A stretch of 64,000 nucleotides of DNA. Origin: an uncultured Verrucomicrobiae bacterium (lineage in GTDB: Bacteria > Verrucomicrobiota > Verrucomicrobiia > Chthoniobacterales > UBA10450). The stretch lies in the NCBI GenBank assembly GCA_963834385.1, contig CAWIBO010000005.1:160001-224000 (forward strand). Direction: 5' to 3'. Of the stretch, positions 1 to 45,192 are shown in pieces. Made by a program: the position numbers and the translations under genes. Under the pieces are notes generated by a model that was given only the letters and a program-made list of their open reading frames with translations, did not search any database and was not told the DNA's origin. Each line of letters begins with the position of its first letter. Positions within the stretch are counted from its first letter, which is position 1.

Positions 1-1083
1 CTTGTGATGATGCGGGCAGTTCATCGCCTTCAGGTAATAACGGTCTCCGAGGGGCGCGGCCGTCTCGGCTGCGCGGCGGGCGGGCGTATCGCCTGCCGGC
101 TCTGTCGTGGCCGCATTTGGGCTCGCCAAAGTTCGTTCCGGCGAGACGCCGGAACCGGCGGGCAGGATGCCCACCCTACCCGGGAGATTGCCTGCGTGCT
201 CGTGCAGTTCCATCGGCGGGAACATTGACTCAGCGTAGTAGGGAAGATGGCCGCTGAGTTTGTACATGCTTTCCCGGGCGAGGTGCGGGGTTCGGACGCG
301 CTGGTATCCGGCGGCGAACTCGGTTTCGCGGGCGAGCTTTTCCAGCTCATCAATAATGGCGGCGCCGCGCGGCAGCCAGAGAGGGAGCCCGGGGCCGACG
401 TCGTCGTCAAAGGTGAAAAGCTGGAGTTCGCGGCCGAGTTTGCGGTGGTCCCGCTTTTTCGCCTCCTCCAGCATCGCGAAGTATTCCTCGAGCTGGGTCT
501 TGTTCTTGAAGGCCGTGCCGTAGATGCGCTGCAACTGCGGGTTCTTCTCGTCGCCCTTGTAGTAGGCGCTCGCGACATGGGTCAGCCGGAAGGCGCCGAT
601 GTTCCCGGTGCGCATGACGTGCGGCCCGGCACAGAGATCGAGAAAATCGCCGTTACGGAAGAGCGAGATCTCCTCGTCCGCGGGAATGTGCTCCACGATA
701 TCGAGCTTGAACTTCGAGGGCGCAGGCCGGGCGCCGAGCGCGGCCAGCTCGCCCCGTTGGGCCAGCGCGAGCGCTTCCTCCCGCGAAACCACGCTGCGTT
801 CAAAGCGATGGTTCGCCTTGATCTCCTTTTTCATTTCCGCCTCGATCTTCTCGAAATCTTCGGGGGAGATCCGGTGCGGCAGTTCGAGGTCGTAATAAAA
901 CCCATTCTCGACCGGCGGGCCGGCGGCGAACTGCGCTTCCGGCCAGAGACGCAGGATGGCCGTGGCCAGCACGTGGGCGCAGGAATGGCGGATCCGCTCC
1001 AGGTCGGTCATGGGCGGTCCCTCGTGCGCACCGCCTTTCGCGGCGGCCGCGGGATCCTCGGCGGCGCTCTTCTCGTCGTTCAT
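1..1083 (-). CDS. thrS: Threonyl-tRNA synthetase, 5' part; runs off the window edge and carries a ~50-aa in-frame palindromic insertion
   Basis: My own translation from the ATG at 1083 gives RHSCAHVLA, GPPVENGFYYD, DLCAGPHV, KRDHRKLG, SGHLPYY and YYLKAMNCPHH, all ThrRS motifs. It is missing from the ORF track because there is no stop in the window. Confidence 0.97.
   Translation of the reverse strand, partial: MNDEKSAAEDPAAAAKGGAHEGPPMTDLERIRHSCAHVLATAILRLWPEAQFAAGPPVENGFYYDLELPHRISPEDFEKIEAEMKKEIKANHRFERSVVSREEALALAQRGELAALGARPAPSKFKLDIVEHIPADEEISLFRNGDFLDLCAGPHVMRTGNIGAFRLTHVASAYYKGDEKNPQLQRIYGTAFKNKTQLEEYFAMLEEAKKRDHRKLGRELQLFTFDDDVGPGLPLWLPRGAAIIDELEKLARETEFAAGYQRVRTPHLARESMYKLSGHLPYYAESMFPPMELHEHAGNLPGRVGILPAGSGVSPERTLASPNAATTEPAGDTPARRAAETAAPLGDRYYLKAMNCPHHHK
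50..180. repeat. REP-like palindromic doublet inside thrS
   Basis: The minus strand reads GGTAGGGTGGGCATCCTGCCC...TTCCGGCGTCTCGCCGGAA (GTAG plus two hairpins). A second two-hairpin unit lies at about 50-100. Confidence 0.75.
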
Positions 1084-1147
1084 CGGTAGCGGGAGATTGC
1101 GCGACTTCCCCGCCCGTGACAAGGGGCGGCGCAACCGAAGCGCTTCC

Positions 1148-2593
1148 TTACTCGCCGCTCGGAAGCGAGCCGTGGGCTTCCTGCATGATGCGGCGCGGCC
1201 CCTTCTCCCGTCTCTCTTTCGGCAGCGGCTCGGTCATGGGCCGGATCCAATCGGCATGGCCCAGGGTCCGCGGCTGGGCCGCGAGATCGACGATCGGATC
1301 GACCAGCAGTTCCGGTTTGCGCCCGTTCAGCGACGCATAGACGCGCGCCTCCACCCGGAGCGGCTTGCGCCCGTAATACGGAATCTCCCGCGCGAGAAAG
1401 TGCGCGAACTGGAGAATCATGTCGGGCCGCGTCAGCGCCTTGGTGGCCTGGTGCCAGGCGAGGTACTGCCGGGGATTGGCCCTGGCTTCGCGACCGGTGT
1501 TCGGGTCGACCACGTAAAAGCGGGCCTGCGCCTCGCGATCGTGCAATTTCATCCGCCAGGAAAAGCGGTGACCCTCGTAGGTCCAGCCGACATCGCCCGG
1601 ATACAGATAATGGCGCAGAGGGACAAGGAGCTGCACCAGGGCGTAGAGACCCGCGAGGGCGAGGACGGTGTTCTGCCAGGCCCGGCCACTGGCCGGGACG
1701 GACGGCGCCGGCGTGGGAAAAGGCCGGCGGGTGAGGAAACGCAGGACTTTGCGGGGCCAGTCAGGCGCGAGAAAGAGAGTGGTCGCGGCCGCACCCAGCC
1801 ACGGAAAAATCCCGATGTGAAACATGTGGGCGTTCAGGATGTGGAACAGAATGGCCAGGACGAAGGCGAAGAGGCGCGTCCGGCGCCAAAGGAGCAGGGG
1901 GACGATGGCGAGGTCGAGCAGCAGGCCGCCGTAGCTCAGGAAGTAGGGCATCCACTCGGTGTTGACGTAGGGGCCAATGATGGGCACCTGCGTTTCGTCG
2001 GACACCCAGTTGCGCATCGGTTCGCCCGCGAGCCAGTCGGGATTGATCTTGGCCACCCCGCCGTAAAAATAGACGACACCGAGCTGGAGACGAAGAATCC
2101 AGAGCGGCCAGACCGGCACGGTGGCGGCGCGGGGAGCGAGCCGGAGGAAAGGATCGAGAGCCCAGGCGCGGTTGGCCGGGAGAAAGACCAGCAAAAAGCT
2201 GAGCAGGCAGATCAGGTACATGTGGTTGAGGTAGATCGCCTGCTCGAGCAGAAAGGTGTAGGTGATCCCCACGAAGAAGAGGGCCGCGGCCACGCGGTAG
2301 AAAAGGCCGAGGGTGATGAGCGCGGCGAGCGCCCCGAGGACATACCAATGATAGATCAGGCCGTCGCCCGGCCACGGCTGGACCCATTCGAAGCCGTAGT
2401 ATTTGAAGAGAAACTTCGGCTGCATCCAGAAGAGTTGAACCCAGCCTTTGCTGAGGTAACGGTAGACCTCGACCACCATGAGGACGCCGAAGGCCGCGCG
2501 AAAAAAGACGAGGGAAGAGGCGTCGACCGGCCGGAAAGCGGCGGTCCGGAGACGGGCGGCGAAGGAATTGCTGGGCGCGGCTCTTTTTGTCAC
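1148..2593 (-). CDS. HTTM-domain / vitamin K-dependent gamma-carboxylase-like membrane protein
   Basis: Motifs YLNHMYL, YFYGGVAKINPDWL, HIGIFPW, GHRFSWRMKL, PDMILQFAHFL and SLNGRKPELLVDP; multiple TM segments. Confidence 0.88.
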   Translation of the reverse strand: MTKRAAPSNSFAARLRTAAFRPVDASSLVFFRAAFGVLMVVEVYRYLSKGWVQLFWMQPKFLFKYYGFEWVQPWPGDGLIYHWYVLGALAALITLGLFYRVAAALFFVGITYTFLLEQAIYLNHMYLICLLSFLLVFLPANRAWALDPFLRLAPRAATVPVWPLWILRLQLGVVYFYGGVAKINPDWLAGEPMRNWVSDETQVPIIGPYVNTEWMPYFLSYGGLLLDLAIVPLLLWRRTRLFAFVLAILFHILNAHMFHIGIFPWLGAAATTLFLAPDWPRKVLRFLTRRPFPTPAPSVPASGRAWQNTVLALAGLYALVQLLVPLRHYLYPGDVGWTYEGHRFSWRMKLHDREAQARFYVVDPNTGREARANPRQYLAWHQATKALTRPDMILQFAHFLAREIPYYGRKPLRVEARVYASLNGRKPELLVDPIVDLAAQPRTLGHADWIRPMTEPLPKERREKGPRRIMQEAHGSLPSGE

Positions 2594-2603
2594 GACGCGC
2601 TGA

Positions 2604-3144
2604 TTACTGCAGGGCCGCGAGGGCTTTCAGATCGATTCGTTTCAACCACTCCTGGAGTTCCGCCGCTTCCTGTCCCTGGGTCTCGATCTGGAGGAGGAAG
2701 CGATTGGCCACCATGACCCAGAGTGTCCCATGCTTGCCCTCTTTCTCGAAGGTCTCGAAGGCCGGATAATCCCCGATCTTGAGGGCCTTGGTGTAGCCTT
2801 CCGGCGTTTCCGCGGTCGGTATCCCAGGCCGCGGTGGAAGCGGCCACGTATTCCTGGTTGCCCGCCGAGTCGAGAATGCTGATGGACGTCAGCGGGATGT
2901 TTTCGCCTTCGCCTTTCTGGTAGTCGCGGTGAGCGGTGCTCAGCTTGAAACCGCCGGAATCATCCGTGCTGCCTTCGGCCTCCTCGGCGGTCCATCCCTC
3001 GGGTGCTTCCGGGAGAAGCGGCAGGAGCGCGGAATAGTTCACCGCCTCGACCGTGGAGATGGCGGGTTGCGCGGAGGCAAGCGCGGGCAGCAGCAGGGCC
3101 GTGGCCGCGAGAACAGCCTGCAGGGGCCGTGGAAACTTGATCAT
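2604..3144 (-). CDS. Secreted hypothetical protein (frameshift near 2820)
   Basis: Sec signal ending ASA/Q. The shifted frame continues TPEGYTKALKIGDYPAFETFEKEGKHGTLWVMVANRFLLQIE... to a TAA at 2604-2606. Confidence 0.7.
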
Positions 3145-3323
3145 GGGAGGAAGGGCAACTTCGCCCTGGTACCGGATTCCCTTCTTCCCAGCCGTTTGTC
3201 AAGACGGGACCGGTCCGGCGCGCGAAAAATGAGGCGGTCGCCGGGGCCGCGAAGTGCGGGAGAGGCGATGGCGCCGAGGAAATGTCTTTGGGAGTCCGCG
3301 GGACGCCGTCTATTTTGCGAGGA

Positions 3324-3821
3324 ATGAAGCATGAGCGTGTCGAGATTCGCCCGGCGGCGGAGGCGGACGTCCCGTTGATTCTGCAGTTGATTCGGGAGCT
3401 GGCGGAATACGAGCGGGCGCCGGGCGACGTGGTGGCGACGGAGGAAGGTTTGCGCGGCGTGTTGTTTGGCCAGCGGCCCTCCGCGGAGGTGTTGCTGGCG
3501 ATGGTCGGGCACGAACCGGTGGGGTTCGCCGTTTTCTTCCATAACTTCTCGACCTGGCTGGGACGCCCGGGGCTTTACCTGGAGGATTTGTTTGTGCGGC
3601 CCGACCAGCGCGGGCACGGATATGGCCGGGCGCTGCTCGAGCATCTGGCGCGGATCGCGCAAGAACGCGGCTGCGGGCGGATGGAATGGGCGGTGCTCGA
3701 CTGGAACGAGCCGGCCATCCAGTTCTACAGGAAACTGGGGGCGCGCCCGATGGACGAGTGGACGGTGTTCCGGCTCACCGAAAGCGAGATCGCGCAACTG
3801 GCGGGGACGGGAGGAAGCTGA
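3324..3821 (+). CDS. GNAT N-acetyltransferase (diamine acetyltransferase/SSAT-like)
   Basis: [34 protein letters not shown] and [12 protein letters not shown]. Confidence 0.93.
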   Translation: [165 protein letters not shown]

Positions 3822-42569: not shown

Positions 42570-44289
<1,720 letters not shown>

Positions 44290-44435
44290 CCGTCCAACTT
44301 AGGCGGCCGGGTTGCTCGACAAAATAGAAAATGCGCGGTCAGGGCTATTTTCGTGCAAAAACGGGATGTCTCGCTGCGGGCGACCATGCGCCAGACCCGT
44401 CCGGGGGAACGGAAGTGGATGTCGAAGGAGCGGCG

Positions 44436-44477
44436 AAAAAGAAACCCCGCCGGATTTCTCCGGCGGGGTTCTTTGTT
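44436..44477 (-). terminator. Rho-independent terminator (possibly bidirectional)
   Basis: 12-bp perfect stem AACCCCGCCGGA-TTTC-TCCGGCGGGGTT with TCTTTTT following on the minus strand, about 10 nt after the small peptide's stop codon. Confidence 0.88.
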
Positions 44478-44480
44478 CAC

Positions 44481-44615
44481 TTACTTACCGATCAGCCCGA
44501 TGCAGCAGGCCCCAGGGCAGCAGGACTGCCCGGCGCCGCAGCAATCAGCCGTCCTCGTCACCGCGGTGGAGGCGGTGAGAGTGACCAGGGCCGCGAGTAA
44601 AAGGAGATACTTCAT
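44481..44615 (-). CDS. 44-aa secreted Cys-rich peptide MKYLLLLAALVTLTASTAVTRTADCCGAGQSCCPGACCIGLIGK
   Basis: My own translation (shorter than anything in the ORF track). AAAGGA RBS just upstream of the ATG, Sec-type signal, three CC pairs, terminator immediately downstream. Confidence 0.78.
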   Translation of the reverse strand: MKYLLLLAALVTLTASTAVTRTADCCGAGQSCCPGACCIGLIGK

Positions 44616-44680
44616 GAGTTCCTTTCGTTTTGCGTTAAGTCGGTTTCTCCGGCGCGAACGCCGGACCTCGCGGGTGAGAC

Positions 44681-45010
44681 TCAGGCGCGCGGCGGCGGCA
44701 CCGGGGGTCGGTCAGGGCGACTCGAGATGATCTCTGCCAGCGGAGGGAAGGTCGTCCGGACGGGAATAAAGGAGAGGGCGGCATCGGAGGTGACCAGGGC
44801 AAGAATGAGCGCGGAACAGCCAGCCAGGCAGGTGGCGGCAGGTTCGTCGGGCGACGCGGGCGCATCGTCTCTCGGGCAATGGGGGGCGAGGTTGGTGGCG
44901 CAGCACGAGGAAGCCGGTTTATCCGCCAGGGGCAGCGGTTTGCCCACAGCCGGGCAAAGAAAAACCGCGCCGCAGACGAGCAGGGCAAAGAGGGAGATGC
45001 CGCGGACCAC
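44681..45010 (-). CDS. CutF/CruR (DUF2946)-like leader protein: signal peptide, Cys motifs, C-terminal poly-Pro
   Basis: GTG at 45010 lies 6 nt after a perfect TATAAT; SCC-x7-C, CLAGC and C-terminus RPDRPPVPPPRA. Confidence 0.68.
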   Translation of the reverse strand: MVRGISLFALLVCGAVFLCPAVGKPLPLADKPASSCCATNLAPHCPRDDAPASPDEPAATCLAGCSALILALVTSDAALSFIPVRTTFPPLAEIISSRPDRPPVPPPRA

Positions 45011-45016
45011 GGTGGC

Positions 45017-45022
45017 ATTATA
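45017..45022 (-). promoter_or_regulatory. -10 box TATAAT of a probable leaderless transcript
   Basis: Perfect TATAAT in GC-rich context, 6 nt upstream of the GTG; no good -35. Confidence 0.6.
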
Positions 45023-45192
45023 CGCGAGAGGAGCGGAGAGGGCGAGGCGAACATGCGGGGTTGGCCTATTCGGAGGGACGCGCTTTGGCGCGTCCAGGGC
45101 GGGGCCATAATCCGTCACGAAGATTCGCGGGCGGCAAAGCATGTTTTGCCCGCTTTCCATTGGAGTGAATCCTGTTCATTCTCCAGGCACAC

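Follow-up and report, generated by a model that had tools for sequence, protein, structure and literature searches.

In a stretch of 64,000 nucleotides from an uncultured Verrucomicrobiae bacterium of the order Chthoniobacterales (GenBank assembly GCA_963834385.1, contig CAWIBO010000005.1, positions 160,001 to 224,000 of the forward strand), here called the window, two small open reading frames (ORFs) follow each other on the minus strand: ORF1, which encodes a putative exported protein with cysteine motifs and a polyproline tail, and ORF2, which encodes a short peptide dense in cysteine, with a spacer of 65 nt between them. A hairpin lies in the spacer, a -10-like hexamer is found just ahead of ORF1 and an intrinsic terminator behind ORF2 (Table 1), and the whole, of about 580 bp, is best explained as a self-contained cassette running from promoter to terminator, in which a leaderless mRNA carries ORF1, the hairpin, ORF2 and the terminator. 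The ORF1 product starts with M-V-R-G-I-S-L-F..., a basic and hydrophobic N-terminus; its C-terminal end is RPDRPPVPPPRA, the last residues being R-P-D-R-P-P-V-P-P-P-R-A. The version of ORF1 given by the gene caller (P0001) has 159 aa and starts at 45160, upstream of the GTG; its extra N-terminal part is not common to the homologues, whose N-termini align with the GTG.

Table 1. Elements of the ORF1-ORF2 unit, with positions counted from the first letter of the window.
Feature	Position	Strand	Remarks
-10-like hexamer TATAAT	45017..45022	-	6 nt 5' of the ORF1 start codon; leaderless or near-leaderless mRNA
ORF1, 109 aa, GTG start 45010, TGA stop 44683-44681	44681..45010	-	CutF-like, putatively exported Cys-motif protein with polyproline tail
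Upstream Cys cluster S35-C36-C37 ... C45 of ORF1	44876..44908	-	near-invariant Cys, 86 family members
C61-L-A-G-C65 (CxxxC) of ORF1	44816..44830	-	begins the second hydrophobic helix
R-P-P-V-P-P-P-R codons, putative arrest motif	44687..44710	-	one codon ahead of the ORF1 stop
Spacer hairpin TCCGGCG-TTCG-CGCCGGA, 7 bp, UUCG loop	44648..44665	-	starts 33 nt past the first base of the PPP codons
ORF2 Shine-Dalgarno-like AAAGGA	44620..44625	-	relatives mostly AGGAGG or AGGAGA at the equivalent place
ORF2, 44 aa, ATG at 44615	44481..44615	-	signal-peptide-like N-terminus, then CC-x5-CC-x3-CC-IGLIGK
Intrinsic terminator, 13-bp stem with 9 GC pairs, T-run	44442..44471	-	closes the unit

Several features of the single sequence are weak, as regards the stability of the spacer, the promoter and the tail in a genome with chance PPPR frames, and a scan for a two-hexamer sigma-70 promoter gave none that passes, with no -35; the case rests on the comparison with relatives, among which the pair, the tail, its distance from the Cys motif, the position of the hairpin, the -10 element and the terminator are all kept. 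The genome of the window (G000) is GC-rich and has 407 chance frames ending in PPPR-like strings, among which no credible paralogous PPPR-tailed leader besides ORF1 was found. When 41 related genomes were searched in six frames for each ORF, the two turned up next to each other in several genera. A profile made from a 12-sequence alignment of ORF1 (A1) matched 43 of the 301 genomes sampled from the Chthoniobacterales, including 26 of 39 in the window's own family, 15 outside it in four families (4/30, 7/39, 3/39, and 1/31), and a single one in a sixth family of the order (1/17). In an even sample of the phylum, A1 matched 4 of 401 genomes, namely the window's own, the two that represent its family in the sample, and a further one with a weak match that has an internal stop.

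We fetched the 30 loci with the best matches to the ORF1 profile, which come from several genera in three families of the order. In all of them an ORF2 of 40-54 aa begins 53-84 nt after the ORF1 stop. A script looking for an ATGAAR start and 40-54 aa caught it in 29 loci, each time with a signal-like N-terminus and 5-12 Cys; the thirtieth locus (L039) has an ORF2 of the same kind and was missed by the search pattern because its ORF1 tail reads R-P-P-T-P-P-P-R. One further genome, G002, also carries the pair and was left out of all counts. The pairing of ORF1 and ORF2 is obligate, and since the flanking genes differ between genomes, the pair is a self-contained unit. In large protein collections, the ORF1 profile found 171 representatives at E<=1e-3 among 1.84 billion, and a profile built on 86 ORF1 sequences found 207 clusters; a search of genome contigs with the single protein gave 422 pattern matches and no confirmed relative. 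Small shares of the locus are present in three soil-metagenome DNA runs of one study, and no RNA sequencing run was listed as holding it.

Within ORF1, V104, P105-107, and R108 are invariant in A1. Over the 86 ORF1 sequences, near-invariance is seen for C36, C37, C45, a column of Cys at position 60, C61, R98, and R108. A conserved Cys motif in the mature part, as looked for in leaders of the DUF2946 type, is present, being CLAGC here and CC-x2-C at this place in most relatives. The tail P-x-[VLT]-PPP-[RK], followed by 1-6 residues and the stop, occurs in 30/30 loci, with RPA-, RPI-, RPL-, RPQ-, EPP-, SPP-, or QPP- before V-PPP-R in the relatives. The tail codons, when aligned as DNA, vary at their third positions and are invariant at the first two, so that selection acts on the peptide. 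A kind of ruler, counted to the first Pro of the PPP from the last Cys that precedes the hydrophobic segment, measures 40 residues in the window. In 27 of 29 loci it is 37-43, with 38 and 41 as the commonest values, and in the other two, both with an extra Cys inside the hydrophobic segment, it is 33. By our reading of the sequences, all ORF1 members have a signal-like N-terminus, with basic residues and then a hydrophobic stretch. An AlphaFold2 model made with the 86-sequence alignment (mean pLDDT 67, pTM 0.28) has helices at residues 2-18 and 63-79 only, the second beginning at the CxxxC, and no globular fold; a predicted protein of two helices, otherwise unstructured, is as expected for a nascent-chain sensor.

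The start of ORF1 is supported as leaderless by the same comparison. A TANNNT hexamer lies 6-11 nt 5' of the start in 23 of 28 loci, compared with a background of 3.6% of positions in the same loci, and a Shine-Dalgarno (SD)-like tetramer precedes the start in only 1 of the 28. The scan left out L041, which is cut off by the end of its contig, and L039, and the starts were picked by eye from the N-terminal pattern; given this choice and the relatedness of the sequences, a nominal binomial P would overstate the leaderless case. The initial annotation, made from the letters alone, had described the unit as a leaderless ORF1 of the CutF/CruR layout controlling a Cys-dense peptide. All elements that it listed, from the TATAAT and the 109-aa ORF with its Cys motifs and tail to the 65-nt spacer, the hairpin, the AAAGGA, the 44-aa ORF, and the terminator, lie where it put them; the leaderless start gains support from the relatives, and the layout proves real and conserved, with a tail close to the ...GPPPRL of CutF (bioRxiv 10.1101/2025.02.05.636593). 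The Cys-dense peptide is the constant cargo in the fetched loci, and both ORFs are kept there in synteny together with the Cys positions and the PPP-R/K tail.

Two observations concern proteins elsewhere that resemble parts of ORF1. At the locus L018 (G015:C154), a second type of small protein (1918-2331, plus strand) ends in S-P-P-V-P-P-P-R and has a different body, which matches nothing in Pfam and shows a C-x2-C-H motif and a first helix rich in Trp and Gln; it is followed (2355-3482, plus strand) by a signal-peptide protein of about 330 aa with C-x2-C-x-C at the start of its mature part. More than one leader family in the Chthoniobacterales may have the PPVPPPR tail. A database protein of 271 aa (P0207) joins a part of an ArsP-type permease (PF03773, 36 bits) to a C-terminal ORF1-like part, and may be either a fusion made by gene calling or a real link to a permease for thiophilic metalloids.

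A known counterpart of ORF1 is CutF of Rhodobacter capsulatus, a DUF2946 protein from the cutFOG operon. It is reported to carry a CxxxC motif and two Cys upstream of it, besides a Sec signal and the C-terminal sequence P-E-P-E-G-P-P-P-R-L, with about 45 residues from the Cys motif to the C-terminal motif; in the account given there, copper binding to the exported part prolongs a stall at the PPP that is otherwise resolved by EF-P, and the stall melts a stem-loop covering the SD sequence of cutO (PMC9973294; bioRxiv 10.1101/2025.02.05.636593). The PPP is described as required for the EF-P-dependent, copper-induced stalling, and disulfide formation is the force that releases the stall in the proposed model (bioRxiv 10.1101/2025.02.05.636593). 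A second counterpart, the DUF2946 protein CruR (Bp2923) of Bordetella pertussis, is reported to have CXXC and RAPP motifs 45 residues apart and Rho-dependent termination in a 162-nt spacer (PMC9426467). Its arrest was demonstrated in vitro, and leaders with RAPP or RGPP are said to lie also upstream of DsbA and thioredoxin genes (PMC12992588). For the family DUF2946 as a whole, a conserved spacing of 45 residues from the Cys motif to the arrest motif is described (PMC9426467, PMC9973294).

In the unit of the window, the spacer hairpin has a folding energy of -12.2 kcal/mol. The 5' arm of the hairpin starts at PPP+31 to +40 nt in 30/30 loci, both where the PPP-R is followed by a single residue and where four to six come after it, so that the hairpin is placed relative to the putative stall site and not to the stop codon. 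The base of the stem is conserved in sequence in the window's family (GGCUCG...CGAG), and the inner stem varies. A plain MAFFT alignment of 29 spacers analysed with RNAalifold predicted no pairs; since loops of variable length had misaligned the 3' arm, this procedure was replaced by two rounds of covariance-model alignment, the model being built first on four sequences that had the same length and then again on ten. The covariance model recovers the hairpin in 21/30 loci at E<=1. Fourteen matches reach E<=0.04, all of them where the hairpin was expected; among these, 98.4% of the cells are paired and 7 of 10 pairs are changed on both sides; none of 500 shuffles reaches the observed covariation score and slid controls are 34-65% paired, with the caveat that the alignment was itself fitted to the covariance model. 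The spacer hairpin covaries, and it does so at a fixed distance from the PPP.

The hairpin does not include the ribosome-binding site of ORF2, and its 3' end lies 19-39 nt before the ATG in most loci. As it neither contains nor masks that site, the stem-loop model of CutF does not transfer to the unit. An excess of C over G around the PPP codons is found in 29-30 of the 30 loci, and spans most of ORF1 in the window; it is compatible with a Rho-utilisation (rut) site as in cruR, and is not diagnostic of one.

The ORF2 peptide of the window has six Cys arranged as three CC pairs. Throughout the family, the 20-30 N-terminal residues resemble a Sec/SPI signal (MKYLL..., a hydrophobic core, and an A-x-A-like end) with no lipobox, and the mature part of about 18-25 residues is typically CC-x3-4-CC-x4-5-CC with Lys-rich ends. 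Six Cys are found in 25 of the 30 peptides, five in 4 and twelve in 1, and the variants include CCCCC, CCCC, and the 12-Cys form. A profile of ORF2 matched 97 clusters in a collection of 5.8 billion proteins, all hypothetical, the few named ones being records of a Chthoniobacterales bacterium; the sources of the family are mostly soil metagenomes. ORF2 gave no match to Pfam at E<=10 and only a match of its signal region to NCBIfam (E 0.068, 13.5 bits, compared with a cut-off of 29), and the nearest Atlas clusters are unnamed, with scores <=0.81.

A terminator hairpin with a T-run follows ORF2 in 19/29 loci, and in L024-L052 it stands 40-65 nt past the ORF2 stop. It is conserved across genera in sequence and not only in structure, as a GC-rich stem around a GGAGAAAUCC-type loop region, then the T-run. 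Rfam gave only two matches, both far below their gathering scores, and the one to BSnc120 (28 bits, with a gathering score of 114) is this terminator. The roughly 150 nt between it and the start of dnaX (44290-44441, minus strand) match no Rfam family at E<=1.

We compared the ORF1 family with DUF2946 (PF11162, a profile of 117 positions with a gathering cut-off of 23.7 bits). The scan took in 146 of the 150 listed ORF1 representatives, the four left out being previously known; 40 match PF11162 at E<=1 and 17 at E<=0.01, and most alignments span most of the profile, several running from about position 3 to 115. PF11162 is the recurrent match of the ORF1 relatives, and DUF6153 and DUF6769 appear occasionally with weaker scores. 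When 151 genomes of the order were scanned in six frames with PF11162, the ORF1 homologue in G335 reached 19.5 bits, and the sole match above the cut-off was a frame with three internal stops. Neither a Pfam label nor a name was found on any of the 120 matches listed of the 207 clusters, so that these offer no bridge to a bona fide DUF2946 protein. Judged from these profiles, the ORF1 family is probably a remote relative of DUF2946 that stays below the threshold of the family.

ORF1 is best explained as a divergent relative or an analogue of the copper-sensing nascent-chain regulators CutF and CruR. We incline, with moderate confidence, to the view that the unit consists of a nascent-chain sensor like CutF and, under its control, a thiol-rich peptide that is secreted. 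Stalling, its dependence on metal, the direction of regulation, and metal binding by ORF2 are what we infer for it, in the following way. The N-terminal signal would target ORF1 co-translationally to SecYEG, and with the ribosome at the PPP-R codons, some 40 residues would span the tunnel and the SecY channel, leaving the CxxxC/CC cluster just at the periplasmic side. A thiophilic metal bound there would change the pulling force on the chain, Cu(I) or Ag(I) being our best guess and thiol oxidation an alternative. The hydrophobic segment right after the CxxxC seems placed to generate such a force: its helix ends about 26-28 residues from the PPP, and membrane insertion of a hydrophobic segment pulls a nascent chain at about that distance in force-sensitive arrest peptides. 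The pulling force would set the duration of the stall at the PPP, and the duration would in turn set the output of ORF2; metal turning ORF2 on would be expected for a chelator, as in CutF, and metal turning it off is the alternative. The ORF2 product would be exported by Sec as a mature peptide of about 20 residues with three CC pairs and may act as a small periplasmic or secreted thiolate buffer for metal. Candidate read-outs of the stall are protection from Rho at the C-rich end of ORF1, as in CruR and TnaC, or an effect of the hairpin on mRNA stability.

A more specific form of this proposal can be put forward tentatively. The ORF2 products of the Chthoniobacterales would be a class, not described before, of unmodified, Sec-exported mini-metallothioneins whose mature part has about 20 residues and three CC pairs, produced when needed under a leaderless nascent-chain metal sensor; the pair would be a minimal sense-and-chelate cassette that changes its genomic site, and the read-out would differ from that of CutF and run through the hairpin about 35 nt past the PPP.

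The 1.5-kb flanks of the pair gave a list of 107 long open frames, of which we scanned 71, setting aside those that overlap the pair and the shortest (36 in all). Recognisable metal or efflux genes stand beside the pair in 11/30 loci, and strictly metal-type neighbours in 5/30, as genes for outer-membrane efflux proteins (OEP) and RND pumps are not specific for metals. A protein of 470-500 aa with an HMBD domain (PF19335) is encoded directly downstream of the pair and on the same strand in G011 and G335; a gene for a P-type ATPase with an HMBD domain is divergent to the pair in G512, an HMA domain is divergent in G587, and a multicopper oxidase gene is convergent in G550. An OEP gene lies beside the pair in three loci, an RND pump gene in two, and a gene for an ArsP-type permease is divergent to it in one (G655). 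The HMBD proteins of 470-500 aa, which come from two genera (L019 of G011, 690-2177, minus strand, E 7e-11; L024 of G335, 1-1410, minus strand, E 6e-12), carry PF19335 at the N-terminus and have no other Pfam match; each may be a third cistron of the unit in its genome.

The unit of the window itself is located between dnaX and a gene for an S58 peptidase. The dnaX gene is downstream of the pair also in G667 and G695, and the S58 peptidase gene is divergent in G000 and G695; with such flanks, the locus of the window alone gives no functional hint. Antisense to dnaX, and reaching into the unit, lies a 495-aa open frame (43243-44730, plus strand) that matches nothing in Pfam; almost certainly it is open by chance in GC-rich DNA.

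A number of results weigh against a CutF-like sensor, and several of them concern the window in particular. The first Cys of the otherwise near-invariant CC ahead of the CxxxC is missing in G000; no metal gene was found within the 1.5-kb flanks; and the stability of the spacer is that of its shuffles (-15.2 vs -15.9 +/- 3.3 kcal/mol). The hairpin of the window, which differs in sequence, was not recovered by the covariance model, whose only match in the window's locus (L023) fell elsewhere. The counts among relatives overstate their statistical weight, since related sequences are not independent. A PPP alone is normally resolved by EF-P. As to the protein family, the initial annotation had pointed to DUF2946, and this stands in part: the relatives show recurrent sub-threshold matches over the full length, whereas the ORF1 of the window matches nothing in Pfam or NCBIfam at E<=10, a six-frame scan of its genome with PF11162 found nothing at the locus, and none of the 146 relatives scanned reaches the cut-off, the best having 22.9 bits.

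The read-out raises further difficulties of the same sort. When the footprint of a ribosome stalled at the PPP was forced to be single-stranded in partition-function folding, the accessibility of the SD sequence rose appreciably in 4 of 29 loci only, so that stall-dependent unmasking was rejected as a general mechanism; it was unchanged in 25/29, and in the window it is 0.35 with or without the masking. The proline codons as the anti-SD strand were likewise rejected as a general mechanism, the pairing being strong in about six loci only (mean energy of proline codon-SD pairing -8.3 for own, -7.3 for cross, and -6.0 for shuffled combinations). Formation of the hairpin in dependence on the stall is not supported, as the hairpin is predicted to be constitutive in 19/30 loci.

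Another explanation of the unit is that ORF1 is a non-regulatory two-helix membrane protein and a partner of ORF2, for example as an anchor, as a membrane-anchored acceptor of metal, or as a partner in export or immunity, its tail being an interaction motif and the two genes merely co-transcribed. The two predicted helices and the obligate pairing would suit such a protein, as would the lack of any predicted structure masking the SD sequence and a hairpin that is predicted constitutive in most loci. We nevertheless consider it unlikely, because arrest leaders are defined by just such a geometry, with the tail at the extreme C-terminus and its distance from the Cys motif fixed, the tail is like the PPPR end of CutF, and the sub-threshold similarity to DUF2946 extends over the full length; moreover, the distance of the hairpin is kept from the PPP and not from the stop codon, which is hard to explain if the tail acts only in the finished protein.

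Somewhat less probable still is that ORF1 senses the thiol-redox state of the periplasm, with the formation or failure of disulfides setting the force and ORF2 acting as a redox buffer or a decoy substrate. The sensor does consist of Cys residues only, the CutF model invokes disulfide formation to release the stall (bioRxiv 10.1101/2025.02.05.636593), and RAPP/RGPP leaders are described ahead of DsbA and thioredoxin genes (PMC12992588); however, the informative neighbours of the pair are of the metal type (HMBD, HMA, P-type ATPase, multicopper oxidase) and not Dsb or thioredoxin genes, and a peptide of 20 residues has no catalytic redox fold.

We also consider it improbable that ORF2 is the precursor of a ribosomally synthesised and post-translationally modified peptide (RiPP) whose enzymes are encoded elsewhere; the product might be a metallophore, bufferin-like or derived from Cys in another way, or else an antimicrobial or signalling peptide. 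ORF2 is short and Cys-rich with an N-terminal leader or signal, and bufferins are reported to be copper-binding RiPPs with a Sec signal, one family having 6 or 12 Cys (PMC11626156); one relative of ORF2 has twelve. However, bufferin cores are given as 61-120 residues, compared with roughly 20 here, and the enzyme that modifies them, an MNIO working with a DUF2063 partner, is encoded alongside (PMC11626156). The genome of the window, which is 89.6% complete, has no match to MNIO (PF05114), neither an MNIO or DUF2063 maturation gene nor any other recurring modifying enzyme stands beside the pair in the 30 loci, and ORF2 matches no RiPP precursor in NCBIfam or Pfam. With no adjacent MNIO or DUF2063 gene and a core well short of at least 60 residues, ORF2 is not a bufferin as these are defined. 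That one or both ORFs are unexpressed chance frames, as the many spurious long frames of this GC-rich genome (such as the 495-aa frame antisense to dnaX) and its dozens of chance PPPR-ending frames could suggest, is scarcely credible, as the frames, starts, ORF2 SD sequence, Cys positions, and tail are conserved across genera with synonymous variation and independent gene callers predict both families in many metagenomes.

If the unit is indeed a CutF-like sensor, the CutF/CruR principle, by which a ribosome is stalled by the very chain it is making, an exported one that responds to metal outside the cytoplasm, would reach the Verrucomicrobiota, through a family that profile searches miss, and the controlled gene, a tiny secreted hexacysteine peptide, would be a new kind of target. 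The ORF2 family may then represent an overlooked and cheap strategy of copper buffering, and the unit of about 580 bp would be a compact system in which to study the read-out of a stall that does not depend on masking of a ribosome-binding site. In the literature we found no description of the ORF1 family, of its tail, of a tiny Cys peptide as the target of an arrest leader, or of a unit of leader and Cys-peptide in Verrucomicrobiota, and the list of CutF-like proteins in PMC9973294 may already include relatives. The principle of the regulator is known; the novelty lies in the family, in its leaderless start, in a hairpin that keeps its distance from the putative stall site, and most of all in the target. 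The large surveys of leaders, as they are described, sorted the downstream genes by Pfam class (PMC9973294) or dropped those annotated as unknown (PMC12992588), so that an unannotated peptide of about 40 aa could not be recorded as a target.

Among known systems, the bufferins (BufA1/DUF2282 and BUF_6/12Cys) share with ORF2 the Sec signal, the richness in Cys, and the ribosomal origin, and have been proposed or shown to be copper buffers of the envelope (PMC11626156), but the mature part of ORF2 is much smaller and no enzyme gene is adjacent. Like CruR, ORF1 is an upstream ORF with a Cys motif and, at a fixed spacing from it, an Arg/Pro motif of the arrest type at the C-terminus (PMC9426467), and both genes have the excess of C over G at the 3' end that is compatible with a rut site. 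CruR differs in its CXXC and RAPP motifs, its 162-nt spacer, and a read-out that depends on Rho and not on EF-P, and it controls a TonB-dependent transporter (PMC9426467, PMC12992588), whereas ORF1 has the PPP-R motif and a spacer of 53-84 nt, and Rho may play a role; the tail R-P-P-V-P-P-P-R is neither RAPP nor RGPP, the motifs of the arrest peptides in PMC12992588.

Much is shared with CutF, a small exported protein with a Sec signal (PMC9973294), where ORF1 has a signal-like N-terminus. In both proteins a CxxxC, preceded by two further Cys, is followed by about 40-45 residues of spacer (PMC9973294), and both end in PPP-R, one residue, and the stop (PMC9973294; bioRxiv 10.1101/2025.02.05.636593); in both, a stretch of less than 100 nt with a stem-loop is followed on the same strand by a gene whose product is periplasmic or, for ORF2, putatively so. 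Unlike CutF, ORF1 has no Pfam match and only sub-threshold relatives, its tail is of the form P-x-V-PPP-R, and the distance from Cys to proline is 37-43 and not 45 residues. The mRNA of the unit is apparently leaderless, its stem-loop leaves out the downstream ribosome-binding site, and in this unit from a verrucomicrobial host the gene that follows is not for a multicopper oxidase but for a Cys peptide of 40-54 aa.

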